In this document: positions 9,450 to 52,344 of the stretch, piece after piece
Layout: every line of letters starts with the position of its first letter
How positions within the stretch are numbered: the stretch's first letter is position 1
Assembly: GCA_965243495.1 (NCBI GenBank)
Contig: CBDEUZ010000007.1
Location: forward strand, 1,511,743-1,575,742
DNA from: Dehalococcoidia bacterium
GTDB lineage: Bacteria; Chloroflexota; Dehalococcoidia; UBA6926
DNA: 64,000 nt
Reading direction: 5' to 3'
Notes under the pieces: generated by a model
The model's input: only the letters and a program-made list of their open reading frames with translations
The model's database searches: none
What the model was told of the DNA's origin: nothing
Translations under genes and position numbers: made by a program

Positions 9450-9504
9450 TGCCGCCACTTAGCGTTCACGCCGGAACGCGGCTTATCATCTCGATTGACT
9501 TGGC

Positions 9505-9540
9505 ATTGCCGGAACGCGAACTTGAGCCGTAGCGCAGCTA
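9505..9540. repeat. family-D REP-like element
   Basis: ggaacgcgaacttgagccgtagcgcagctaccgcc, between the convergent ada and MFS genes. Confidence 0.7.
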
Positions 9541-10800
9541 CCGCCTCACTCCCCGCAACTCCGGCAGCATAAGCCGTAAAACCATCACTACTACGAACCC
9601 CGTACCCGTCAGTAGCGCCAGCGCCATCTGAGGCCCAAGGTTCTCCGGCTCCGCCATCCATCCCACCGTCAGCATCCCCAGCGGACTCGCGCCGATGCCT
9701 AGCGCGATGGCGCCCATCGCGCGTCCCCGCATCTCCGGACTCACTGCTCGCAGCGCGATAGTTGGCTGCATCGTCGCAAACCCGGACATGCCCAGGCCTG
9801 CAACCATCAGGAGAACAAGAGAAACCGTGTACCACTCTGAAAGGGCGAAGAGCACCATGATTCCTAACATGAATGTCGAGCCCAGCGAATAGACCTGTCC
9901 ATGGTTGCGTATCTGTCGTGAGGCAATGATGATCGCACCCGTCAACGACCCCACGCCGGCCGCGCCTGCCAATACCCCATACAGAAAGGCGTTTGCGCCC
10001 AGCACGTCACGCCCGATCACTGGCACCATTGTCAGGAAGGGAAATCCGAAGAAGTTGAGGCTGACGGTGATTGTCAGGGCGGCTGCAAGAGCCCGGTTGG
10101 TGGCGAGCACCGTCACGGATTCCTTCAGTTGTCTAAGTACGGGCGTCTTTTCCGCGCCCATCGACTCAGTCCTGGGAATGGTGAAGAGAACCCAACCCGC
10201 CGCCACGTACAGGCCCAACATCAGCCCATACGAACCTGAGAAGTCAACCAACTCAATGATTGCCCCGGCGAAAAGCGGCCCCACGATGCTGCTGCCCGTG
10301 AGGGCCACAACATCCAGAGAGATGGCATTCGTCAGCGCGTCCCCGCGGAAAATCTCCGCGAAATAGGCGCGTCGCGCCGAGAAGTCCACCGCCCACGCTG
10401 AACCGGTAAGGAAAGTCGCCAGGTAAGCGTGCCAAGGCTCCACGTTTCCGCCTACTAGCACCGCGAGCATCCAGCCGACCACTGCCACGTTGAGGATTTG
10501 CGTTGAAATCATCACGTACTTGCGCGGAAAACGGTCTGACAAGCTGCCCGCTACAAGCCCAAGCAGGAACATGGGAGCCATCCGGAACACACCAACGAGC
10601 GCCACTTGCGACGGCGAGTCTGTCAGTTCAAGAACCAGCCATGACAGAACCGCCATCTCCATCATGCGGTTCATATACCAGATCCACCCCGCCATCCAAA
10701 GGCGGCGGAAGACAGGGTTGCGGAGCGAGCGGAATGTGCGGAAACGGTGCGAACGCTCGCGTCGCGCCGCTCGTTCAGTCGTAGATGGATTAATGCTCAT
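9538..10800 (-). CDS. MFS transporter
   Basis: 12 predicted TM helices and MFS-like loop motifs (…GSLSDRFPRKYV…). Confidence 0.8.
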   Translation of the reverse strand: MSINPSTTERAARRERSHRFRTFRSLRNPVFRRLWMAGWIWYMNRMMEMAVLSWLVLELTDSPSQVALVGVFRMAPMFLLGLVAGSLSDRFPRKYVMISTQILNVAVVGWMLAVLVGGNVEPWHAYLATFLTGSAWAVDFSARRAYFAEIFRGDALTNAISLDVVALTGSSIVGPLFAGAIIELVDFSGSYGLMLGLYVAAGWVLFTIPRTESMGAEKTPVLRQLKESVTVLATNRALAAALTITVSLNFFGFPFLTMVPVIGRDVLGANAFLYGVLAGAAGVGSLTGAIIIASRQIRNHGQVYSLGSTFMLGIMVLFALSEWYTVSLVLLMVAGLGMSGFATMQPTIALRAVSPEMRGRAMGAIALGIGASPLGMLTVGWMAEPENLGPQMALALLTGTGFVVVMVLRLMLPELRGVRR

Positions 10801-11746: not shown

Positions 11747-11947
11747 TCTTCGTCATTCCCGCGAAAGCAGGAATCCAGTGCCGCCCACAGGGCGGGCTAC
11801 CACCCCTGTCCACCTAAGCGGCTTCCCTGGTTCCCCCTGAGCCTGTGGAAGGGTGCCCCCATCATGTCGCCAAAGCCGGAACGGGGCGGAGAAACGCCAC
11901 AAATCAACCAACCCTGATCGCGAACTTAAGCCGTAGCGCAGCTACCT
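11747..11947. repeat. family-A and family-D REP-like elements upstream of otsA
   Basis: tcattcccgcgaaagcaggaatccagt at ~11749; gatcgcgaacttaagccgtagcgcagctacc at ~11917. Confidence 0.75.
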
Positions 11948-15399: not shown

Positions 15400-15492
15400 C
15401 GAAGAATCCCCGTTCGCCCTGAGCGTAGTCGAAGGGGGCTCCCGAACGGGGAACCATGCATCGTCATTCCCGCGAAAGCGGGAATCCAGTGC
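15400..15492. repeat. family-B hairpin + family-A element
   Basis: ccccgttcgccctgagcgtagtcgaagggggctcccgaacgggga … cgtcattcccgcgaaagcgggaatccagt. Confidence 0.85.
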
Positions 15493-16639: not shown

Positions 16640-17140
16640 AATAGACCTGAATTGCATGTCATTCCGAGCGCAGCCGAGGAATCTAAAGCCGCATTACGCG
16701 AACCTAAGCCGTAACGCAGTTACTTCCATCGCCCCGCCTGCGCCCACATTCGTCATTCCCGCGAAAGCGGGAATCCAGTGCGGCGCGAAGCGCCGTCTTT
16801 GTCATTCCGAGCGCAGCCGAGGAATCTAAAGCCGCATTGCCCACCCATGCCGGAACGCGGCATTCCAACTCCGCAGGCCAATCACCGCCGGATCGCGAAC
16901 CTAAGCCGTAACGCAGTTACCTCCATTGCCCCGCCTACCACCTATTCGTCATTCCCGCGAAAGCGGGAATCCAGTACGGCGCACAGCGCCGTCTCTGTCA
17001 TTCCGAGCGCAGCCGAGGAATCTAAAGTCGCATTACGCCAACCACCGCCTAAGCGCCAACCAAAATCCGTAACGCCCCCACGCTCACCCTGAGCTTGTCG
17101 AAGGGCGAGCCGTAACGCAGTTACCTTGCCCCGTATATTC
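16640..17140. repeat. cluster of REP/MITE-like palindromic elements (families A, C, D and B-like)
   Basis: Family A (tcattcccgcgaaagcgggaatccag) near 16752 and 16947. Family C (gtcattccgagcgcagccgaggaatctaaag) near 16657, 16801, 16997. Family D (cgcgaacctaagccgtaacgcagttac) near 16697, 16891. A B-like unit near 17077. Confidence 0.85.
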
Positions 17141-19014: not shown

Positions 19015-19103
19015 TCCTGTCCGTCATTCCCGCGAAAGCGGGAATCCAGAACCCAAAGAACAAACCAACCAGAACAGAGCAGACAAGGAAAGAGAGGAAA
19101 GAA

Positions 19104-20057: not shown

Positions 20058-20375
20058 CTCGTCATTCCCGCGAAAGCGGGAATCCAGTACGACGCACAGC
20101 GCCGTCTCCTCCCCGTTCGCCCTGAGCCTGTCGAAGGGGGCTCCCGAACGGGGACCTGACCCAACTCGTCATTCCCGCGAAAGCGGGAATCCAGTATGGC
20201 GCACAGCGCCGTCTCCTCCCCGTTCGCCCTGAGCCTGTCGAAGGGGGCTCCCGAACCGGGACCTGGCCCACCTCGTCATTCCCGCGAAAGCGGGAATCCA
20301 GTACGACGCACAGCGCCGTCTCCCCCCGTTCGCCCTGAGCGTAGCGAAGAATCCAAAGCCGCATTGCGCAAATCA
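20058..20375. repeat. 3x tandem composite REP-like array (unit ~100 bp: family A + linker + family B hairpin)
   Basis: ctcgtcattcccgcgaaagcgggaatccagtacgacgcacagcgccgtctcc…ccccgttcgccctgagcctgtcgaagggggctcccgaacgggga repeated three times at ~20058, 20163 and 20269. Confidence 0.9.
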
Positions 20376-21065: not shown

Positions 21066-21150
21066 GCAATCTCCCCGTTCACCCTGACACTGTCGAAAGT
21101 CCCCGTTCGCCCTGAGCGTAGTCGAAGGGGGTTCCCGAACGGAGAAACCT
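21066..21150. repeat. family-B REP-like elements (1.5 copies) at the left island border
   Basis: ccccgttcaccctgacactgtcgaaag + ccccgttcgccctgagcgtagtcgaagggggttcccgaacgg. Confidence 0.8.
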
Positions 21151-22761
21151 TCCCCCACTTACGCCAACGACATTCATAACAGGCCCGCTGAGAGCCATTT
21201 CCGTGGAATCGACGGGGCCGATGGGGCTATCGTCGGGCATCGGAATCGTGTAGGCAATGCTGGCTTTCCCGGGACTGATTCGGATTTCTTTGACGAACGA
21301 CCGGATGAAAGCCTTGGTCTCGGTCAACTCGCTGGTCTTGAGGAATTCACCCATTTCTCTCGCGTGGGCTGCGATTGTTTCGACCTTATCCAGGATCACC
21401 CGTCGCTCTGCAAGGGCGGTTCGGGCTTCCTCGGCTGCTATTTCCAGTTGCGCCTTCCGTTCTCGGTGTGTCGCGATGCGTTCGGACGCGTCCGACATCT
21501 CAATGGTCGCCGTTTCGATGGCCTCCAAGATCCGGTCCAATCTCTGCTTCAGGTCCGCGAGCTCGCTTTCGATGGTCGCAAGACGCTCGCGCTCCTCTCT
21601 CGCCATGCCGTCCATCTCCTCATCCAGCAACCGCACCAATCCCCGCACGTTCTTCTCGCTCAGGATGTTCTCGCGGATCTGGTCGATGATGAGGCGTTCG
21701 AAGCGCTTTGAGTTCAGGCGTGGGCAATCGCAGGTCCCGCTGCCCCGCTTGAGGAGCGATTGGCACACGTAATACGTATACCGACCGCCCTTGGCTTCAG
21801 AGGCCGATAGCGGCCTGCCGCAGTTGTCGCACGTGACAAGGCCACTGAGCACGTAAGGGCTGGAGGCTCGCATCGGGTGAATCACTTTCGGTGAGCGCGA
21901 CCCAAGGAGTTTGTTGACGCGCCGATACTCCTTAGCAGTCACGATTGCAGGGAATGCCCCCTCAACCCGGACGGGCGGCGCGCCGTCCTTGGCCGTGATA
22001 CCCCAGACCAGCGTGCCCGTATGGACTTCATTCGTCAGGATCACGTGGATTGTGTTCTTGGGCCACGTCTTGCCCCTCGGCGATGGGATACCCTCACTGT
22101 TGAGTGTCTTGGCAATCTCCATCGTTCCACGCCCCTTGAGCGCCATGTCGAAGATGCGGCGAACGATGGGCGCGGCGGACTCATCGAGTTCGAGCTTCGG
22201 CCTCTTCTTTGCGCCGTCCTGCACCAAAACGCGCCGGTAGCCGAATGGTGCATGAGGGCTCACCCAGAAGCCGCGTGACGCCGCCTCGCGCATCCCGCGC
22301 GTCACTTCCTGGGCGAGATTCTCCGAGTAGAACTCATCGACGCTCTCGATGATGGCCTCCATGAGCTTGCCGGTCGGAGTGTCGTCGGCGTGCTCTGTGA
22401 TGGAGACGACCCTGATGCCTCGCCTGCGCAGCATTGCCTTGAATGCGACGGCGTGTTCGCGCTTCCGGGTGAATCGCGAGAACTTCCAGACAAGGATTTC
22501 CTTGAACGGCGCGTTCGGCGAGCTCGCCTCGTCGAGCATCTTGCGGAACTGGGGCCGATCCGCGATGCGCCCACTCTCCGCCTCATCGATGTACTGCCGT
22601 GCGACGATATAGCCGTTCTTGTCGGCATAGTCCCGCAGTGCCCTCAACTGCGCCGCGACGGACAAGTCTACATCCTGCCGGTCACTGGAGACGCGGGCAT
22701 AGAGGGCGGCGGTCGGCAGTTGTTCCTGTTGTTGGGATTCCTTCTTCTGCTTGCCTTTCAT
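21079..22761 (-). CDS. large serine recombinase (resolvase N-domain + recombinase domain + Zn ribbon + coiled coil)
   Basis: N-terminal resolvase catalytic region (AALYARVSSDRQ…), a Cys4 zinc ribbon (CDNCGRPL…C…C), and coiled-coil-like C-terminal helices. The C-terminal tail runs into a family-B repeat. Confidence 0.8.
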   Translation of the reverse strand: MKGKQKKESQQQEQLPTAALYARVSSDRQDVDLSVAAQLRALRDYADKNGYIVARQYIDEAESGRIADRPQFRKMLDEASSPNAPFKEILVWKFSRFTRKREHAVAFKAMLRRRGIRVVSITEHADDTPTGKLMEAIIESVDEFYSENLAQEVTRGMREAASRGFWVSPHAPFGYRRVLVQDGAKKRPKLELDESAAPIVRRIFDMALKGRGTMEIAKTLNSEGIPSPRGKTWPKNTIHVILTNEVHTGTLVWGITAKDGAPPVRVEGAFPAIVTAKEYRRVNKLLGSRSPKVIHPMRASSPYVLSGLVTCDNCGRPLSASEAKGGRYTYYVCQSLLKRGSGTCDCPRLNSKRFERLIIDQIRENILSEKNVRGLVRLLDEEMDGMAREERERLATIESELADLKQRLDRILEAIETATIEMSDASERIATHRERKAQLEIAAEEARTALAERRVILDKVETIAAHAREMGEFLKTSELTETKAFIRSFVKEIRISPGKASIAYTIPMPDDSPIGPVDSTEMALSGPVMNVVGVSGGRFLRSGTPFDYAQGERGLSTVSG

Positions 22762-40623: not shown

Positions 40624-43600
40624 CTAGCTCCCGCTTACCCAGCGCACACCTTCGGGCAGACGAGGCCAAGCGACTAGAGTGCCGTCTGTGGTAATAGCCA
40701 GCGTGTGATTGGTACGGACCACAATGCTCCGGTATTCCCCGTCAGGAGGACTGGTTCTGCGGCCTCGCTCGTTGCCCCAGCACACAACGGTGTTGTCGGT
40801 TGCTACCGCGCAGGTGTGAAACTCGCCCATGCTTACGCTCTGATAGGTTCCAGCAGGTCCGTCGGTCTGGCCGTGCTTGTTGTATCCCCAGCAGGAAATG
40901 GTGTCATCAGTTGTAATGGCGCAGGTGTGGTACTTGCCGGCGCTGACATTCTTGTAGGCGCCAACGGCCGCGCGCGCCTTGCCGTCCTGATTATTGCCCC
41001 AGCAGGCGACGCTGCCATCCGTGGCCACGGCACAGGAGTGGTCGTCACCGGCGCTGATGCTCTGGTACGTCCCTGTAGGCGCGTTTGTCTGGCCCTTCCG
41101 GTTGTCTCCCCAACAGATAATGGCGTCGTCGGTGGCAATGGCGCAGGTGTGTGCCGAGCCAGCGGATAGCGCCTTGTATGTGCCCGTGGGCGCAATGGTG
41201 CGGCCGTTTGCGCTGAGTCCCCAACAGGCAACGGCGTCGTCGGTTCCGATGGCGCAGGTGTGGTCATCGCCGGCCACAATGCTCTGGTACGTACCAGAGG
41301 GAGCGTTGGTTTGACCGTGTCCACCATATCCCCAGCAGGCAATGGTGTCGTCGGTTGCGATGGCGCAGGTATGGTCGTAGCCGGCAGCCAATTGCTTGTA
41401 GGCGCCCGCCGGAGCGTCGGTCTGGTCAAACTCGTCATATCCCCAGCAGGAAATTGTGCCGTCACTGGCGATGGCGCAGGCATGTTCATAGCCCAGTACA
41501 GCGGATTCGAACGTGCCGGAGGGCGTGTCGGAGCGGGCGTCAATATTCCATCCCCAGCACTTGACCGTGCCGTCTGTCGCAATGCCGCACGTGTAATTGC
41601 TAGCAAGAGCCGTGGCCTTGAAGGCGCCCGACGGTGATTCGGCTTGACCGTCGGCGTTAGTCCCCCAGCAGGAAACTGAGTCGTCGGTTGCGATGGCACA
41701 GGTGTGATTGCGTCTCGCGACGATACTTTTGTAGGTTCCCCCAGGCGCATTGGTCTTGCCACTGCCGCTATCACCCCAGCAGGCAATGGTGCCGTCGGTG
41801 GCGATGGCGCAGGTGTGGTATTCGCCCGCGCTTATGCTCACGTAGGAGCCCGCAGGCGCTCGGGTTTGCCCCCTGTTGTTCATTCCCCGGCAGATTACCG
41901 AATCATCACTCTTTATAGCGCAGGTGTGAACGAAGCCGGCCGTGACCGCCTTGTACGTGCCGGACGGGAAATTGCCCTCCCCGTGATCATTCAGACCCCA
42001 GCAGGAGATGGTGTCGTCAGTCTTGATGGTGCAGGTGTGCTCCCAACCGATGGCCATCGACTTGTAAGTACCGGCGGGCGATGCGTTCTGGGCGAAGCTG
42101 TGGTATCCCCAGCAGGCAATCGTGTCGTCAACAGCGATGGCGCAAGAGTGTCGGGAGTGCGATGCGATGGCCTTGAATGTACCTGCCGGAGGAGTGGCCT
42201 GATTGAATGTGTTCCAGCCCCAACAATCGATTGAACCGTCTGTGGCGATGGCACATGTGTGAACGCTTCCTGAAGCCAACGCTTTGTAAGCACCTGCAGG
42301 CGGGTCGATTTGACCTCGATGGCCTTCTCCCCAGCAATGGAGCGATCCGTCGGTGGCGATACCACACATGTGGAAGGAACCGCCGCTCAACTCCACGAAA
42401 GTGCGTTCCGGGTTAGTGGATGCCAGTAATGTCGCGGGATCGGATAGCGCTACCACTGTCCCTGTTGCGCTGCTGGTCAGGCTCTCCGAATACCCGTCGT
42501 CGTCGGTAAAGCTGACCTGCACCTTAATGGTCTTCCCCTGGTCATCGTCGGTGAGAGTGTAGGTCTGCCCGGTGGCCCCGGGGGTGTTCGTGTCCGAGCC
42601 GCTATCACTGCGTATCCACTGGTAGGTGTACTGCGGGTTTGAGAGTCCGTTTCCATCGCTGATTCCTGAGGTGTCGGCAGTCAGCGTCTCACCCACCTGC
42701 TCTGTGCCCGTGATGGTTGGCAGGCCGGTGGGTGTTTCGTTAGTCGGAGTGGGATCCGCCGGCGTGGTGAACCTCGCTGCTGGTTGGGACCACTCGCTCA
42801 GCCCGTGGGCGTTACGGGCCTTAACCCGGTACCGGTACGTGGTCTCCGGCGCCACGGTCGTGTCCGTGTAACTGGTGACTGAACTGCCCGTGTCGTCCTC
42901 GATGACATCGAATACGCCGGAGTCGTGGATTGCAGGGTTCCGCCTGAGCACCTGGTACCCCGTGATGCTGGTGTCCCCGGGGTCATCCCACGCAATTGTG
43001 ACTGAGTTGTGTGCGACGGATTCAATGGTGGGACGTGACGGCGTCGCCGGTGGCGCAATCGTCGGGGCTACTGTGGCGGGATTGTTCTGAGGAGTCTCTC
43101 CGCCACTACTCCCCCCTACGGCAGAGGTTACTGATGCAGTGGCAGCGCTGGTCAGCGACTCCGAATACCCTCCCTTATCGACAAAGTCCACGCGTACCTT
43201 GATGGTGTTGCCCTCGTCGGCTGCCACAAGGGTGTAGCCGGAGTCCGTGGCGCCCGTGATAACGGTGTCTGTGCCTCCGCTGCTTGAGATCCACTGAAAG
43301 CGGAACTGTACTCGGTCCAGCCCGTTGCCGTCCGTAATGGCCCCCGTATCTGCCGTCAGGGTTTCTCCGACTTCCGGCGTGCCGCTAATGACGGGAGTGC
43401 CGGTGGCCGCCACGTTGTCAGGTCTGGGCTGTCGGCCTTGCTCAAACTGAGTCGTGGAGGCCATTTGATAGAAGGCAGACCAGTCCGAGGTCCCGTGAGC
43501 ATTCCTTGCCCGAACCTGGAACCAGAGCGTGGCGGTTGGATCGAGTTCGCTGATTATGGCTCCCGCCCCGTAGAAGGCGATCTCAACGCCGTCTCCCGGC

Positions 43601-44218: not shown

Positions 44219-44350
44219 CGTCATTCCCGCGAAAGCGGGAATCCAGTTCGGCGCATAGCGCCGTCTCTGTCATTCCGACTGCACCCCCATGTCATTCCGA
44301 GCGCAGTCGAGGAATCTAAAGACTCCATTGCGCCACCCCCGCCCGTCTTT
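44219..44350. repeat. REP-like cluster (A + C fragment + C)
   Basis: gtcattcccgcgaaagcgggaatccag then gtcattccgagcgcagtcgaggaatctaaag. Confidence 0.85.
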
Positions 44351-45274: not shown

Positions 45275-45393
45275 TTGCCATAGAAGCCCTACAATGGTAG
45301 GGCAAGCGGGGGTAGCGAACCCTCTGTCATTCCCGCGAAAGCGGAAATCTAGACTACGATTGGCACGCTAAGCTGGTAAGCAAACCGGAGCGG

Positions 45394-46175: not shown

Positions 46176-48020
46176 TCATTCGACAGTCACCGACTTCGCC
46201 AGGTTCCGCGGCTGATCGATGTCCGCCCCCCGCAGCAGTCCAATCTCATATGCCAGCATCTGCAGCGGCACCGTCGCCGCAATTGGCACCAGGTGCTCCG
46301 GCGTCTCCGGCACGAAGATCGCCTCATCAGCCTGCCCGCCAAGCTCATCGTCCCCGTCCGTCAACAAGCCGACCACGTGCCCCGACCGCGCGCGTATTTC
46401 TGAGATATTGATCGCCATGCGGTCCCGCAACCCGCCCTCCGGCGCAAGCGCAATCGTCGGCATGTGCTGATCGATGAGCGCGATCGGCCCGTGCTTCATC
46501 TCGCCCCCCGCGCTGCCCTCCGCGTGGATATACGAGACCTCCTTAAGCTTCAGCGCCCCCTCCAGCGCGATGGGATACATAGGCCCGCGCGCCAGCAGCA
46601 GGCAGTTGTCGTTCGCCGTCAGCCGCTCGGCCACAGCCCGGATAGCATCTCTCCGTTCCAACGACTCGCTCACGATGCCCGGCAGCCGCTCCAGGTCCAG
46701 CAGGTGCTGGCTCACCTCGTCCTCGTGCATTTCGCTCCGGCCCGCCGCCGCGTCGATTGCCAACAGATAGAGGCAGATAATCGCCGACGTAAAACTCTTT
46801 GTCGCCGCAACCCCCACCTCGAGCCCGGATCGCATATCCATCGTCTCGCACGCGATCCGCGCTGCCTCGCTATCCAATGCATTCGTCACCGCCACGCAGT
46901 CCGCCCCGAGGCCTGATGCATGCTCCAGCGCCGCCAGCGTGTCCAGCGTCTCACCCGACTGCGTAATCGCGATGAGCAGGTCTCCCTTGCCCATCCGCGC
47001 ATTTCGGTGACGCAGCTCGGACGCCACCTCCGCCTCCACAGGCACGCCCGCCAGCGTCTCGAAATAGTGCCGACCCACAAGCGCCGCGTGATAGCTTGAT
47101 CCGCACCCGGTGAGGATGATTCGCCGCGCCGCAGCCAACCTCTCGGACAGCCCCGGACCGTAGTCCGGCTCCAGCCGCCCCGACTCTAGGTCCACACGCC
47201 CCCGCAGCGCATCCGTCAGCGCCTGCGGCTGCTCCATGATCTCCTTCAGCATGAAATGCTTGTACATCCCCTTCGCCGCCCGCAGCGGGTCGCGCGTCAC
47301 CTCTGTGAACTCCCGCGCCACCGGCGCCCCGTCCAGAGTTGAAACCTCCACCCCATCAGGCCTCAGCACCGCGATCTCCCCGTTGTTCAGCGGCATCGCC
47401 TTACGCGTCAGCGGCACCAGGGCAGGCAGGTCGCTTGCCGCGTACGTCTCCCCGTCTCCCACGCCGATAACCAGTCCCCCGGCGTTGCCCGCCCGCACAG
47501 CGATCAGCGTGTCCGGCTCCTGTGCGCACGCGACCAAAAACACCAGCGCCCCGTGCATATCCGGCAGGATCGACTTCACCGCCTCGACGGGATCGAGACC
47601 GCGATCGAGCGCCTCCTCGATGAGATGAGGCAGCACCTCGGTATCTGTCTGCGATGTGAATCGATGGCCCCGCGATACAAGCTGCGCTGCCAGTGCGCTG
47701 TAATTCTCGACGATGCCGTTCTGCACGACACTCACACGATCGGTGCAGTCCATGTGCGGATGCGCGTTGGCCAGGGACGGCGCGCCATGCGTCGCCCACC
47801 GCGTATGTCCCAGCCCGAGTGTCCCTGAAACGAACGACCCCTCGAGGTCTGCCCTCAGCGCATCCAGCTTTCCGACGGCCTTATTAGTCCCGAACACGCC
47901 GGATGGCCCAAGGATCGCCATCCCGGCCGAGTCATACCCCCGGTACTCGATGCGCGAAAGCCCATCCAAAACAATCGGCATCGCCTGCCGATGCCCCGTA
48001 TACCCCATAATCCCGCACAT
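46176..48020 (-). CDS. glmS: glutamine--fructose-6-phosphate aminotransferase
   Basis: Starts MCGIMGY (Ntn Cys), has two SIS domains, and ends …VTVE. The track ORF's N-terminal extension runs through REP elements, so the start is set at MCGI. Confidence 0.9.
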   Translation of the reverse strand: MCGIMGYTGHRQAMPIVLDGLSRIEYRGYDSAGMAILGPSGVFGTNKAVGKLDALRADLEGSFVSGTLGLGHTRWATHGAPSLANAHPHMDCTDRVSVVQNGIVENYSALAAQLVSRGHRFTSQTDTEVLPHLIEEALDRGLDPVEAVKSILPDMHGALVFLVACAQEPDTLIAVRAGNAGGLVIGVGDGETYAASDLPALVPLTRKAMPLNNGEIAVLRPDGVEVSTLDGAPVAREFTEVTRDPLRAAKGMYKHFMLKEIMEQPQALTDALRGRVDLESGRLEPDYGPGLSERLAAARRIILTGCGSSYHAALVGRHYFETLAGVPVEAEVASELRHRNARMGKGDLLIAITQSGETLDTLAALEHASGLGADCVAVTNALDSEAARIACETMDMRSGLEVGVAATKSFTSAIICLYLLAIDAAAGRSEMHEDEVSQHLLDLERLPGIVSESLERRDAIRAVAERLTANDNCLLLARGPMYPIALEGALKLKEVSYIHAEGSAGGEMKHGPIALIDQHMPTIALAPEGGLRDRMAINISEIRARSGHVVGLLTDGDDELGGQADEAIFVPETPEHLVPIAATVPLQMLAYEIGLLRGADIDQPRNLAKSVTVE

Positions 48021-48700
48021 CGCCCCTCCGTCATTCCCGCGAAAGCAGGAATCCAGAATCCCCTCGGTGCCCTCCGCTCCCCCTGAGCCTGTCGAAGGGT
48101 CGCCCCTCCCCAAATCATACCCTGCCAGAATCCCCTCCCCCCCTCGACGAGGGAGGGTTAGAGAGGGGGTGACCCCATCGCCCATCTTGGACCCGCCGAA
48201 AGGTCACGGTTCGCCCTGAGCTTGTCGAAGGGGGCTCCCGAACGGGAACCTAGTCACGCCTCCCCATTCGTCATTCCCGTGAAAACGGGAATCCAGTGCG
48301 ACGCGCAGCGCCGCCTCCCACCATCATCCCGACCACACCCCTGTCATTCCGAGCGCAGTCGAGGAATCTAAAGACTCAATTCCGTCCCCAATCCGGTAAC
48401 AATCCCCGTTCGCCCTGAGCTTGTCGAAGGGGGCTCCCGAACGGGAACCTAGTCACGCCTCCCCATTCGTCATTCCCGTGAAAACGGGAATCCAGTGCGG
48501 CGCACAGCGCCGCCTCCCACCGTCATCCCGACCACACCCCTGTCATTCCGAGCGCAGCCGAGGAATCCAAAGACTCAATTCCGCAGCCAACCCCGTAAAG
48601 CCACTCAAATATCCCCTCCCCTTCGATGGGGGAGGGTTAGGGAGAGGGTGACCCATCCGTCATTCCGGCGCAGGCCGGAATCCACCCCGTGGCCCGCTAG
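48021..48700. repeat. ~680-bp cluster of REP-like elements (families A, B, C, E) in the glmS upstream/divergent intergenic region
   Basis: A at ~48035, 48265, 48463, 48655 (variants tcattcccgtgaaaacgggaatccag). B at ~48200 and 48404. C at ~48345 and 48541. E (ccctccccttcgatgggggagggttagggagagggtga) at ~48140 and 48612. Confidence 0.85.
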
Positions 48701-48897
48701 GGCCACACGCCCAACCCCTCAGGAGAGTGCTATGAGGGCGCTGCACACGGGTCAGTGATTGGAACAGCCATCGGTTAACATGAGACGGGTGTACGGAGGA
48801 AGACTGAATAACGCAGGTGAACGATTTACACACGGTGAGCGGTCTCTGTAGAAAGAGCGCGAGGTGTGATTACAAAGGCTAGTGACTCTGCAGAAAT

Positions 48898-49716
48898 TTG
48901 GAAGGAATAGCTTTGGGCAACAGAACATTTTCTTCGCGAGAAGGCCTCTCAGACAATATTGACTTGGTTTACGATGATGCGCCCGGAGGCCTTCGGTACG
49001 GGCTCCGCGAAGTTCTCACCGATCTCGGCTACAGGACGCCGGGTGCTCAACGGGGCATCCTTTGTAAGGCATTGAGGATAAGTCCTGACCAGTACAACTG
49101 GAGTGCCCCAAACATTGAGATTGAGGTCGTGGATCTTATCGCGACTGAGCCTTGGTATAAATTTTTCGATGCTCTGGAAAGAATCCCAAAGTTCCTGCAA
49201 GCGGGACAAGCACCAGATTACCAAGAGAAGATGAATGCACTGTTCAGCGAGGAGCGGGTCGGTTATCGGTTCGAATCGGGTGACATTGTGCGGCTCGGAA
49301 CTGATGAGTTTCACGAAGCAATTGATCAAGCTCGCTCTTCACTGTCGGATGAACGATTTGCCGAACCTCGCAGGCAGTTCGAGCGTGGATATATCTTTCG
49401 AAATAGTCGTCCACCTGACTTGGCTAACGCCATCAAAGAAGCGGTCAATTCAGTGGAAGGTACCCTTCAGATTATCTACAGTCGCCCTGGCGTCTCGTTG
49501 ACAACAATAGTCAGTGAGAACCTTCCTGAAGATTTGCCTAGCGGTATCAAGCAATTGATCCGCTCCCTCTACAGCCAAGGAAGCGGAACTATTGGTGCCC
49601 GACATGCCGCAATTGGAGGTAACGTGCCTACTGACTCGCGCGCTGAACTGGCTCTGCATATCGCGGCAGCACTACATAGCTTTGCCGTGAATGAACTGGA
49701 TTCCAATCAACCCTGA
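48898..49716 (+). CDS. hypothetical protein
   Basis: 272-aa ORF with normal codon usage and no motif I can assign. Confidence 0.4.
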   Translation: MEGIALGNRTFSSREGLSDNIDLVYDDAPGGLRYGLREVLTDLGYRTPGAQRGILCKALRISPDQYNWSAPNIEIEVVDLIATEPWYKFFDALERIPKFLQAGQAPDYQEKMNALFSEERVGYRFESGDIVRLGTDEFHEAIDQARSSLSDERFAEPRRQFERGYIFRNSRPPDLANAIKEAVNSVEGTLQIIYSRPGVSLTTIVSENLPEDLPSGIKQLIRSLYSQGSGTIGARHAAIGGNVPTDSRAELALHIAAALHSFAVNELDSNQP

Positions 49717-49779
49717 CCGTGAAACTGAGCCGTAGCGCAGCTACTCCCTACAATCAACACATCAGGGTAGGGGGATCCC

Positions 49780-50769
49780 ATGTCCGAATCGACCGCCTTT
49801 ATCCTCGGCATCATCCAGGGGATCACCGAGTGGATTCCTGTCAGCTCGCAGGGCGTCGTCGCCCTCGTCTCCACATGGATTGACGACGCCGAGCCCTCGG
49901 ACGCCATCGCCATCGCCCTCTGGCTGCACGTCGGCACCGCCCTATCCGCGACCATCGCCCTGAGACGCGACATCACATCGATAATCCGCGACTCCATCGT
50001 CGGTCGGGTCCACCCTGAGCGCTCGTCCGGTCACGCAGCGCTCACCGCCGCTCACCCTGAACTCGCTTCTGTCGACCCCGAGCTTCTTGAAGGGTTACCC
50101 CCCGGCCACCCTGAGCCTGTCGAAGGGTTACCCTTTACCGCCCAGGCTGGAACGCGGCATTCCAACCCCACATATCCGCCAACCGTGATCGCGAACTTTG
50201 GACGTAGGCACCGCCTACCCCCCGTCATATTCCTCGCCCTCAGCACCGCCGTCACCGCGATAATCGGCCTGCCCCTCTACCTCATCGTGGGCGAGATTGC
50301 GGATCTCCTGGGCAGCGTTGCCATGCTGCTTGTCGGCCTGGCGATGCTCGCAACGGCATTCGCCATCCGATGCGGACTGTGGGAGGGCGAGCGGGGCAGG
50401 GATGATGTCACCCCAAAGGACGCGCTCATCGTCGGTGCCGCGCAGGCGCTTGCCGTCATTCCGGGGCTCAGCCGCACGGGGCTGACCGTCGCCGTACTGC
50501 TCACGAGGGATTGCAGCCACCGCGAAGCCGTCGTCCTGAGTGTTCTTATGGGCATACCGGCGAGCATAGGCGCAGGTCTGCTGGCCCTCACCACGTCCGA
50601 CACCATCGGCGGCTGGCCTGCCGTCGTGGCGATAGTGACCGCGGCAATCGTTGGAACCCTCGCCATCCGAGCCATCCTCGCATGGGCCACCCGCGTCACC
50701 TTGGCCCCATTCGTCGCCGCCGCCGGAACCGCCGTCATCCTCGGCGCCCTAATCGCCCTCCTCGCCTAA
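49780..50769 (+). CDS. uppP: undecaprenyl-diphosphatase (BacA/UppP) with ~55-aa repeat-derived in-frame insertion
   Basis: N-terminal BacA motif ILGIIQGITEWIPVSSQG and C-terminal …PGLSRTG… motif. The central loop, encoded by 50010..50215, is made of family B/D-like repeat DNA. Confidence 0.65.
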   Translation: MSESTAFILGIIQGITEWIPVSSQGVVALVSTWIDDAEPSDAIAIALWLHVGTALSATIALRRDITSIIRDSIVGRVHPERSSGHAALTAAHPELASVDPELLEGLPPGHPEPVEGLPFTAQAGTRHSNPTYPPTVIANFGRRHRLPPVIFLALSTAVTAIIGLPLYLIVGEIADLLGSVAMLLVGLAMLATAFAIRCGLWEGERGRDDVTPKDALIVGAAQALAVIPGLSRTGLTVAVLLTRDCSHREAVVLSVLMGIPASIGAGLLALTTSDTIGGWPAVVAIVTAAIVGTLAIRAILAWATRVTLAPFVAAAGTAVILGALIALLA

Positions 50770-50774
50770 CCCCT

Positions 50775-50900
50775 TCTCGTCACTCCCGCTAAAGCATGTC
50801 CCGTACTCCGATACGGGACGGGAATCCAGAATCCCCTCTCCCTCAGGGAGAGGGTTAGGGTGAGGGGGTTGTCATTCTGAGCACAGCGAAGAATCTAAAG
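50775..50900. repeat. REP-like cluster (A variant, E, C)
   Basis: …gggaatccagaatcccctctccctcagggagagggttagggtgaggggg…gtcattctgagcacagcgaagaatctaaag. Confidence 0.8.
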
Positions 50901-50988
50901 ACCCAATAGTGGCATTCACGCCGGAACGCGACAGCCGAACCTCCACGACCATCTTGGCCAGATCGCGAGCTTTGGCCGTAGGCACTGC

Positions 50989-52344
50989 CTACCGCCCGAT
51001 GTACTCTGCCGGAACACCCGCCACCGTCGTGCCCTCAGCAACATTCCGCGTCACGACTGACCCCGCCGCCGTGTACGCCTTTCCCCCAATCTCAACCGGC
51101 GCAACCAGCATCGAGCCGCTCCCTATAAACGCCCCGTCACCAACGATCGTCCGGTGCTTGTCCTGCCCGTCGAAATTGCACGTCACCGCCCCCGCGCCGA
51201 TGTTCACATCCTCCCCAATCTCGGCATCACCCACGTACCCGAAATGCCCTATCGCCGTACGACTCCCAATCCGGCTCGCCTTGATCTCCCCAAAGCTGCC
51301 GATGTGAGCATCAGTGCCGATATGCGTCCCCGGCCGCAGCCGCGCGAACGGCCCCACCGAAACGCCGTCCTCCAGCGTCACTTCGTCCAGCCACGACCCC
51401 TGCACGACGCACCGTTCTCCAATCTCCGAATCGACGATGTGCGTGTCCGGCCCGATCTCGCACCCCGCCCCAATGACCGTTGCTCCCGTGATATGCGTAT
51501 TTGGCCGAACCACCGTATCCGTCGCAATCGTCACCGTTGAGTCGATGTACGTCGAAGCCGGATCGATAATCGTGACCCCGGACAGCATCAGCGCCTCCAG
51601 TGTCCGCTGTCGCGCCACCCGCTCCGCCTCCGCAAGATCCACCAGCGTGTTCACCCCAATCGCCTCCTCAGCATCGATCTCCAACGTCTCAACCCCCCGC
51701 CCGTCTGCCACCGCCAGCTTGACAAGGTCTGTGATGTAGTACTCGCCGTTGTCACGCAGGGGCAGACGGTCCACCGCCGTCCGCGCCCACGCAAGATCCA
51801 GGGCGTACACTCCGGCGTTCCCCTCCGGCGGCGCGTCCTCAAAACGTGGGTCGCTGGCCTCGATGATCTCGGCCACTTTTCCGTCGTTAGATCGCCTTAT
51901 CCGCCCGTAATCTGCGCCAATGGGCGCGTACATTGTGAAAAACGTAACAGCAACATCAGGCCTTGACTCATGTTCTTCAACGAGTTTGCGCAAGGAATCA
52001 GAAGAAAGCAGGAGTAAGTCGCCGTTAATCACCAACAGATGAGATGCAGTACTTGTGGTATCCGCAAGATAGGCCTTAATCGCTCCGCCCGTCCCATCGG
52101 GGGTTTGTTGCATTACGTAACGATAAACAAGCCCCAGCGCCTCCGGGATCGCCGCTGAATCGTCCCGCACAATCGTCACATCGGGCAGGGCTGCCTCAGA
52201 AATCGCATCTAAAACTCGGCGTAGCATCGGCAGTCCGCCAACCGGGTGCAGAACCTTCGGCAATGAGGTCCCCATCCTTGATCCCCGCCCCGCCGCAAGC
52301 ACCACCGCCGCCCACTCCGTGCTGCCATTTCCTATCTGATTCAT
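50989..52344 (-). CDS. glmU: bifunctional UDP-GlcNAc pyrophosphorylase / GlcN-1-P N-acetyltransferase
   Basis: N-terminal AAVVLAAGRGSRMGTSLPKVLHPVGG and C-terminal hexapeptide repeats. Start set at MNQIGNG. Confidence 0.85.
   Translation of the reverse strand: MNQIGNGSTEWAAVVLAAGRGSRMGTSLPKVLHPVGGLPMLRRVLDAISEAALPDVTIVRDDSAAIPEALGLVYRYVMQQTPDGTGGAIKAYLADTTSTASHLLVINGDLLLLSSDSLRKLVEEHESRPDVAVTFFTMYAPIGADYGRIRRSNDGKVAEIIEASDPRFEDAPPEGNAGVYALDLAWARTAVDRLPLRDNGEYYITDLVKLAVADGRGVETLEIDAEEAIGVNTLVDLAEAERVARQRTLEALMLSGVTIIDPASTYIDSTVTIATDTVVRPNTHITGATVIGAGCEIGPDTHIVDSEIGERCVVQGSWLDEVTLEDGVSVGPFARLRPGTHIGTDAHIGSFGEIKASRIGSRTAIGHFGYVGDAEIGEDVNIGAGAVTCNFDGQDKHRTIVGDGAFIGSGSMLVAPVEIGGKAYTAAGSVVTRNVAEGTTVAGVPAEYIGR

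Follow-up and report, generated by a model that had tools for sequence, protein, structure and literature searches.

An in-frame array of REP-like repeat units, probably grown stepwise, in a putatively cytoplasmic loop of a BacA-family gene of a Dehalococcoidia genome

The uppP locus and its foreign segment

The window analyzed here is the whole stretch of 64,000 nucleotides from a Dehalococcoidia bacterium (assembly GCA_965243495.1, contig CBDEUZ010000007.1, positions 1,511,743 to 1,575,742), in which a gene of the BacA/UppP family, uppP, lies between glmS and glmU. A preliminary description of this DNA, made from the letters alone, had proposed that the uppP open reading frame (ORF) is continuous and about 55 aa longer than usual, and that the excess is a repeat-derived in-frame insertion built from two repeat families, B and D. 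It offered two interpretations, a tolerated exaptation of a MITE (miniature inverted-repeat transposable element) within a loop of an essential membrane enzyme or an incipient pseudogene. The ORF is indeed continuous, with 329 aa and a single Pfam match (BacA PF02673, 3.5e-44, 151.9 bits against a cut-off of 33.4, residues 6-313). The foreign segment replaces ~4 native codons (RRLS) and gives a net gain of 66 codons relative to syntenic orthologues of 263 aa, a larger excess than first estimated. The gene and the parts of the segment are as follows.

49780-50769, + strand: bacA/uppP-family ORF with the insertion, uninterrupted, 329 aa (990 nt)
50008-50217, + strand: whole foreign segment (~210 nt), codons V77-L146, delimited by protein alignment, the DNA of 13 orthologues and DNA alignment
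50011-50073, + strand: three 21-nt units, HPERSSG / HAALTAA / HPELASV, degenerate derivatives of the B-unit head CACCCTGAGC, from the codon listing
50029-50115, + strand: block G84-E112, of repeat origin, subject to purifying selection and conserved among clade I alleles
50071-50101, + strand: B-core copy 1 (DPELLEGLP), diverged, 71% to the reference and 85% identical to the next unit, with 33-nt spacing
50104-50134, + strand: B-core copy 2 (HPEPVEGLP), from the repeat-family search, with a consensus match at 50109-50127 (100%) and a shuffle control
50139-50219, + strand: D unit (…AQAGTRHSNPTYPPTVIANFGRRHRLP), from the repeat-family search, with a consensus match at 50149-50198 (94%) and a terminal hairpin, GTAGGC-ACC-GCCTAC, at 50204-50218

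The CCCTGAGCCTGTCGAAGGG repeat is thus present twice in clear form in the segment, along with a D unit of ~80 nt and three derivatives of 21 nt that are degenerate. Its upstream part (50011-50073), made up of the degenerate derivatives of the B head, had not been singled out in the preliminary description. The 11-nt sequence CCACCCTGAGC is present at both 50010 and 50106, and the counterparts of the diverged first B-core copy in two related loci, L012 and L016, retain 19/19 and 17/17 exact B-core bases, respectively.

The insertion shares homology with repeats that are scattered over this genome, for the most part between genes. Both strings previously quoted for families B and D recur in the window, and no recurrence is expected from 100 shuffles: the family-B 27-mer at 50107-50133 has a second site at 48079-48105 and the family-D 33-mer at 50187-50219 a second site at 50961-50993, each with three mismatches. 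In a blastn comparison of the region against the window, 50109-50207 matched 11835-11936 (73.5% over 102 nt, E=4e-14), 50143-50257 matched 50917-51026 (E=9e-10) and 50138-50206 matched 16841-16910 (E=3e-7), and the B core matched about ten other window sites in a blastn self-comparison. The repeat-family search placed 50071-50101 and 50104-50134 in a nine-copy family B and 50139-50207 in a three-copy family D. When aligned with four intergenic copies, the D copies share the invariant motifs GGAACG.G.C … GA.CGCGA.C.T..G.CGTA, followed by a short hairpin. The claim of a repeat-derived insertion with family B and D DNA was therefore confirmed.

Secondary structure is better preserved between genes than within uppP. 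The two in-gene B units fold like shuffled sequences (z -0.55 and +0.70), compared with z -2.1 to -2.6 for intergenic B units, and the 6-bp terminal hairpin of the D unit is the only palindrome that the inserted copy retains. Tandem Repeats Finder (TRF) reported no tandem array in the window insertion, whose units are too diverged. Rfam at gathering thresholds returned only tRNAs over the whole window, the repeats matching no known RNA family, and promoter and terminator scans of 49600-51100 returned nothing. At the protein level, the 72-aa insertion peptide gave one candidate and no match in a word-indexed database, and an exhaustive search of 1.84 billion representatives recovered only a UppP fragment, P0051. 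The insertion-peptide searches hence give no evidence of the B-D module in other protein families.

Orthologous loci and their alleles

Close relatives were identified through protein searches, and DNA was taken from the syntenic glmS-uppP-glmU loci of Dehalococcoidia and Chloroflexota metagenome-assembled genomes (MAGs). The 13 orthologues align over the N-terminal 72 aa and the C-terminal 182 aa without internal indels, and the piece between varies from 9 to 103 aa. The short form of the protein, …AP-RRLSAP-V… with 263 aa in total, is found in the syntenic loci L002, L008 and L009, in several further proteins and in all more distant homologues. Among 93 BacA homologues the loop has 14 residues in 50 and 15-21 residues in another 30, and lengths of at least 26 are confined to a narrow group; the window loop has 80. 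Neighboring glmU genes of the same genomes show no internal indels. Their length differences (412 vs 452 vs 477 aa) were examined as a possible second insertion and proved to be start-codon call differences only. In the low-coverage long-read assemblies L012 (4360-5622) and L016 (4050-6032), glmU is broken into two or three ORFs; these splits are probably indel errors, and single alleles from such sources need caution.

Since the syntenic orthologues and all outgroups are without the segment, the short loop is ancestral and the window segment an insertion, in a host ORF that is open and under selection. An alignment of orthologues had been named beforehand as the comparison that could expose the segment as native UppP sequence, and it did not do so. 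The corresponding alternative, an original low-complexity loop whose likeness to the repeats is convergent or from which the repeats derive, draws on the Pro/Glu/His-rich, periodic character of the peptide, which resembles some native linkers. Besides missing from the orthologues, however, the units occur at ~13 intergenic loci of the window, the A-type units of sister alleles match the described and widespread CGTC/dRS3 family of repetitive extragenic palindromic (REP) sequences, and the reading frames differ between alleles. On the sequences compared, a native loop is refuted by the orthologues and retains next to no probability.

The alleles differ widely in what they carry at this site. 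L005 and L007 have a single B unit (HPERSRRV, +5 aa), which almost matches the intergenic consensus CCCCGTTCGCCCTGAGCGTAGTCGAAGGG. In L006, tandem derivatives of the B head, 21 nt each, come on top, and the clade I alleles, the window among them, have long arrays. An exact CGTCATTCCCGCGAAAGCGGGAATC unit is found in L015 within a clean 63-nt insertion directly after native …CCGTC. The L014 loop contains a unit reading SFRRKPES and the L016 loop a unit matching window 48658-48705, and these loci carry A and A' units. The orthologous units of L012 form a 21-nt x5.7 array (TRF) with a 63-nt duplication, the 98% identity of which indicates that tandem duplication is ongoing. One DNA repeat is read as PEPVEG, LSLSKG or PERSRR depending on allele and position, and these differing reading frames point to an origin by insertion at the DNA level rather than to a native peptide motif. 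All sampled array lengths are multiples of 3 and stop-free.

The window array itself is a mosaic, with a 5' part like that of L011 and a B-D 3' part common only to L001, which suggests from sequence comparison that it reflects recombination among alleles. An import of B-D by recombination from the L001 lineage in particular was considered; sliding identity singles out no tract for it. A single B-D insertion flanked by a target-site duplication (the 9-nt TACCCCCCG at 50096 and 50216, 120-nt spacing) was rejected as unproven; such a repeat occurs in 20% of shuffles, and in L001 the repeat and the module are separated by additional units.

Assembly is difficult for such repeats, and with the assembly indels in glmU of L012 and L016 in mind, the segment could be ascribed to repeat-rich reads that were mis-joined or collapsed in uppP during MAG assembly. 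The B-D module is nevertheless 94% identical, in frame and at the same place in the independent assembly L001, more than 10 other assemblies have related arrays at the same codon, and the junctions are in frame with collinear flanks. We therefore consider an assembly artefact extremely improbable.

Selection, topology and the likely origin of the loop

The core of uppP outside the array showed a ratio of non-synonymous to synonymous divergence (dN/dS) of 0.12-0.23 at dS 0.26-0.56 between the window and 12 orthologues. The insertion-bearing lineages among these have diverged to dS 0.26-0.40, and their core dN/dS is still 0.12-0.23. This purifying selection on the core indicates that the window uppP is functional and not a pseudogene. 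Additionally, the B-D-bearing allele is intact in a second, independently assembled genome, L001. In 93 homologues the (E/Q)xxxE residues Q13 and E17 are invariant, as are S22, S23 and, from the other re-entrant-loop motif, PGxSRxG, P228, G229, S231 and R232. Catalytic roles have been described for the (E/Q)xxxE motif, for the Ser27 nucleophile and for Arg174 of PGxSRxG (PMC5861054). One BacA homologue of 307 aa, P0044, has a ~40-aa internal direct duplication across its PGLSRSG motif; this could be a genuine tandem duplication or have arisen in assembly.

These results bear on the second interpretation of the preliminary description, in which the gene has lost, or is losing, its function through the insertion and the open frame merely persists. 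It could be supported by a nonsense codon in one relative, L097, by the redundancy of E. coli UppP with PAP2-type phosphatases, and by the low scores of the window protein on the NCBIfam UppP equivalog profiles (TIGR00753 / NF0013xx), where the best values were 110.9 against a cut-off of 354 and 95.5 against 217.5. Insertion-free orthologues score low as well, with P0023 equally low on these profiles, and the low score is therefore a property of the clade. Together with the constrained core, the invariant catalytic residues and arrays that all keep the frame without stops, this leaves the pseudogene interpretation largely refuted and, in our judgment, very improbable.

The clade has a further peculiarity. 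Residues V26 (49855-49857) and A314 (50719-50721) stand in the columns of the hydrogen-bonded pair H30-Y260 of E. coli UppP; in the 93-sequence alignment these columns hold His in 34 and Tyr in 33 sequences, and the pair is absent from the whole clade. Judged by profiles and alignment columns, the window uppP clade is a divergent BacA subfamily, and we infer the undecaprenyl pyrophosphate (C55-PP) phosphatase function of the window protein from family membership only.

The transmembrane topology of the insertion site, which the preliminary description had proposed to map, was obtained by aligning the family profile to the structures 5OON and 6CB2. The insertion point corresponds to P79-S86 of E. 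coli UppP, within the loop Gly73-Thr91. Workman et al. placed this extended loop, alpha3a-alpha4, on the cytoplasmic side and described an active site that opens to the periplasm (PMC5861054), and El Ghachi et al. reported the same topology, with a short amphiphilic helix H3' in this loop (PMC5852022). By this alignment, the uppP repeat loop maps to the cytoplasmic side, opposite the active site. An AlphaFold2 (AF2) model based on 93 homologues, which supersedes an earlier, poor run with a shallow alignment of 36 sequences (mean predicted local distance difference test score, pLDDT, 63.6), had a mean pLDDT of 86.6 with a confident core. Its best Foldseek matches support the BacA fold of six transmembrane helices and two re-entrant helix pairs (template modeling score 0.76-0.78 to 5OON / 6FMT, probability 1.0). 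Residues 78-147 were modeled at low to moderate confidence (block means 52-77) as short helices at 81-103 and coil at 104-147, the insertion being mostly coil. The inserted peptide is hydrophilic (grand average of hydropathy -0.56), contains 18% proline and has no transmembrane potential, and an Arg-Arg cluster just before helix 4 is kept in every allele and with all 3' junction types.

Within the loop, an older and a probably younger part evolve differently. A block of 27 codons (G84-L88 and A91-E112; 50029-50115) is common to six clade I alleles with DNA, with pairwise dN of 0-0.13 and dS of 0.28-1.45. Its variable sites are distributed 5/3/18 over codon positions 1/2/3, compared with 44/25/124 in the core, and its 22 synonymous versus 7 non-synonymous states contrast with a neutral expectation of 26% synonymous (binomial p=3.7e-8). 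This synonymous excess indicates that the repeat-derived stretch is under purifying selection at the protein level. The block is missing from L013, which belongs to clade I, and from clade II, and it is therefore not indispensable.

The B-D module (50104-50219 vs L001:3438-3560) differs from that of L001 at 7/123 bases (5.7%), and almost all changes are non-synonymous (dN 0.070, dS 0.031), which is consistent, on this sequence comparison, with neutral evolution. It is far less diverged than the core dS of 0.36 predicts, and the motifs of the D unit and the stem of its hairpin have been spared. The module is thus either young or recently exchanged, or else constrained as DNA. The exaptation proposed in the preliminary description is consequently supported in part, for the older block, which is under purifying selection, and not for the B-D module to which it had drawn attention, as this module behaves neutrally.

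A stronger form of exaptation would be adaptive, with the loop, or at least the block GHxAL..AHPELASVxPELxEGLPPGHPE, kept for a specific function as an interfacial helix like E. coli H3' or as a partner-binding or regulatory segment. The concentration of block variation at third codon positions despite high dS, the short helices of the AF2 model at residues 81-103 (pLDDT 67-77) and the presence of H3' in the same loop of E. coli (PMC5852022) are in its favor. On the other side, L013 and clade II do without the block, the downstream module content differs in nearly every allele, no block homologue was found in other proteins among the 1.84 billion representatives, and the purifying selection may reflect mere avoidance of harmful residues. 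We regard an adaptive role as possible and rather unlikely.

We consider it quite likely that the segment is a REP-like array that grew stepwise in the cytoplasmic H3-H4 loop, is tolerated there and has been domesticated in part, the BacA-family gene itself being functional. This interpretation rests on the repeat homology, the insertion-free orthologues, the mapping of the site, the selection on core and block and the allele diversity, from which we infer the order of events and the mechanism of insertion. The genome is colonized by short REP-like units of several families, which are strung together between genes as co-oriented mosaic arrays, and one such array lies inside uppP/bacA, where the loop that joins transmembrane helices 3 and 4 is encoded. 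A single B unit may have been seeded at a C-rich native site (…CCCCCGTC…), and the array may then have grown by tandem duplication of 21-, 33- and 63-nt sub-units and by the addition of further units, namely B, D and, in other strains, CGTC-type A units, probably along with recombination between alleles or with intergenic copies. Only frame-keeping, stop-free variants with the Arg-Arg cluster by helix 4 are observed, in a loop that is naturally variable in length. The older upstream part of the array would have become constrained protein, with the B-D module (50104-50219) as a younger, neutral-behaving addition.

Several points weigh against this stepwise scenario or limit it. The outer palindromic stem of 9-10 bp of the intergenic B units is lost in the gene, where only the core is kept; the in-gene B units are relics, and active insertion cannot be demonstrated from them. 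The first B insertion is not clean relative to the empty site, and a neighbor-joining tree interleaves empty and single-B states, requiring repeated gain, loss or recombination. Alleles were mostly found via called proteins, such that frameshifted or broken alleles are possibly under-sampled; a scan of metagenome contigs recovered a single close relative, L017, without the insertion, and is no unbiased census of disrupted alleles. Several relatives are low-coverage long-read assemblies with evident indel errors in glmU. The whole uppP clade, with or without the insertion, falls below the NCBIfam UppP equivalog cut-offs and has no E. coli H30/Y260 pair. Finally, in L097 (1321-1419) the W33 codon reads TGA instead of TGG, the gene otherwise staying in frame, which would reflect either an error in sequencing or an ability of some strains to do without the gene; the label of an essential enzyme is not sustained in view of this relative.

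The intermediate alleles and the purifying selection on the older part make the locus a usable model for the origin and fixation of new peptide segments. In a more tentative reading, which we hold to be rather improbable, the allele series, from empty through one unit to mosaic, could represent the birth of a constrained segment of a conserved membrane enzyme from selfish REP-like DNA, and these loci may also show the movement of CGTC REPs by strand-specific, single-strand, target-specific transposition of the IS200/IS605 kind or of the REP-associated tyrosine transposase (RAYT) kind. The co-orientation of the units and the clean L015 insertion 3' of native …CCG(TC) would fit such transposition. 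Annotators of repeat-rich MAGs should note that proteins of outlying length and loops of low complexity may be real, and repeat-derived ORF extensions (glmS, DUF2779, a recombinase tail) are common in such genomes.

Other repeats of the window and comparison with known systems

Three further arrays of the window are of use for the comparison.

11830-11946, + strand: intergenic composite of B and D, ordered and oriented as in uppP, whose B-D module has no better relative in the window; flanked by alpha/beta hydrolase and GT20 genes
48024-48705, + strand: mosaic array upstream of glmS that serves as the unit-family reference, with units A, B, C, E and A'
50770-50993, + strand: uppP-glmU spacer, a mosaic array of A-like, E, C and D units

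In the window and 16 related loci, uppP is the only genuine gene with internal units; all remaining copies are located in the gaps separating real genes or at the ends of genes. Unit sites of the window include 9467-9542, 11751-11946, 15407-15490, 16657-17105, 19022-19049, 20060-20344, 21100-21142, 44219-44321, 45326-45349, 48029-48651, 49728-49744 and 50109-50198. All matches of seven repeat-unit consensi in the window (52/52) are on the + strand, whatever the orientation of the flanking gene, and 15 related loci have 108 + vs 3 - repeat matches. GC skew is mostly negative across the window. The strand bias of the repeats suggests a replication-strand-linked spread or a strand-specific role.

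The array upstream of glmS (48021-48705) spans ~680 nt, contains a 196-nt duplication at 94% identity and is found just upstream of the point where glmS truly starts (MCGI at 48020, - strand), where it creates a spurious upstream ORF extension to 48185. No glmS ribozyme was found by Rfam in the window. On the other side of uppP, glmU has its stop codon (+ strand CTA, 50989-50991) in the hairpin belonging to a D unit (50913-50993), as is also the case in L007 and L011, which resembles the published supply of stop codons by REP termini (PMC3733652). Likewise, the C-terminal tail (…FLRSGTPFDYAQGERG…) of a large serine recombinase (21079-22761, - strand) is the reverse-complement reading of the B unit at 21100-21146, and the repeat thus supplies the end of this ORF. 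Relative to the empty sites of L009 and L002, the 63-nt insertion of L015 (3231-3298) begins with an exact REP of the CGTC type. In another pair of filled and empty sites, L002 vs L005 in the uppP-glmU spacer, the start likewise follows …TCG, which hints at a target preference of CGTC REPs.

The glmS-uppP and uppP-glmU spacers carry variable cargo, some of it with restriction-modification or defense-type Pfam domains (48898-49716; L011-L014, L016), namely an AbiJ_NTD4 protein in the window and DUF2779, N6_N4_Mtase+HNH and Mrr_cat/NA-iREase1 genes in relatives. Downstream of the recombinase, the stretch from ~24 to ~40 kb has a G+C content of 0.54-0.57, compared with 0.59-0.61 in most flanking stretches. 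The isochorismatase and ECH genes on either side of it are neighbors in L002, which suggests an integrated element. Tandem repeats of 111 nt (at least 14 copies, 60-90% identity) at 40772-42366 may be a repeat-protein gene inside this putative island.

Among known systems, the Neisseria intergenic mosaic elements with dRS3 and the bacterial interspersed mosaic elements of E. coli are similar in being strain-variable arrays of different short repeat modules. Those arrays are extragenic, whereas the present one is part of a coding region and passes a reading-frame filter. This genome's A units fit the CGTC-1/dRS3 description (unpaired CGTC tag, 8-9-bp stem, 4-5-nt loop) exactly, with a CGTC tag, an 8-bp stem starting with AT, a 4-nt loop and a CCA tail, and they have the core ATTCCC-N8-GGGAAT in common with dRS3. 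MITEs such as Correia, ERIC and Nezha are likewise small, non-autonomous, dispersed and occasionally fused in frame to ORFs. The units here differ in being modular and 20-90 nt long. The window insertion shows no terminal inverted repeats and no convincing target-site duplication, its flanking 9-nt direct repeat not being significant, and the MITE label of the preliminary description was accordingly given up.

The literature searched contained no report of such an insertion in this phylum or in this membrane enzyme, and nothing specific on these repeat sequences or on such repeats in Dehalococcoidia. UppP is not listed among REP hosts in the supplementary files of PMC3733652 that were searched. 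The kind of event itself is already established, through the Rickettsia palindromic elements (RPEs) and intragenic REPs, and further cases have been reviewed by Delihas (PMC3184786). RPEs insert in frame into housekeeping genes (Ogata et al. 2000, 2002, as summarized in PMC10969869 and PMC3733652). They resemble the present units as short selfish repeats found in frame in unrelated housekeeping genes with the host ORF intact, and their inserts have been judged compatible with fold and function. An RPE is, however, usually one palindromic element of 100-150 bp per site, whereas uppP has a strain-variable mosaic of several small units at one codon, with the in-gene B palindrome lost and a Dehalococcoidia host.

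Intragenic REPs are the other close parallel. Di Nocera et al. (2013, PMC3733652) described GTAG- and CGTC-tagged REPs in ORFs, with clusters encoding 43-82 aa, REP ends that supply stop codons and neutral insertions proposed in flexible loops; the enzyme that mobilizes CGTC REPs is not known (PMC3733652). A units of this CGTC type are carried by the uppP loops of the sister alleles L015, L014 and L016. The window insertion differs in consisting of B and D units, which are outside the GTAG and CGTC tag definitions: no A unit lies inside it, and the GTAG of the D hairpin GTAGGC-ACC-GCCTAC is part of the stem, whereas in GTAG-tagged REPs the tag stays unpaired ahead of a stem-loop. Its units also run head-to-tail and co-oriented, whereas CGTC REPs have been described mostly as head-to-head dimers (PMC3733652). 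Less usual features are the nesting of several unit families at one codon, the highly strain-variable allele length and the measurable purifying selection on the older part. The locus is a well-resolved addition, documented in several alleles, to the few cases of selfish palindromic repeats turned into working protein.

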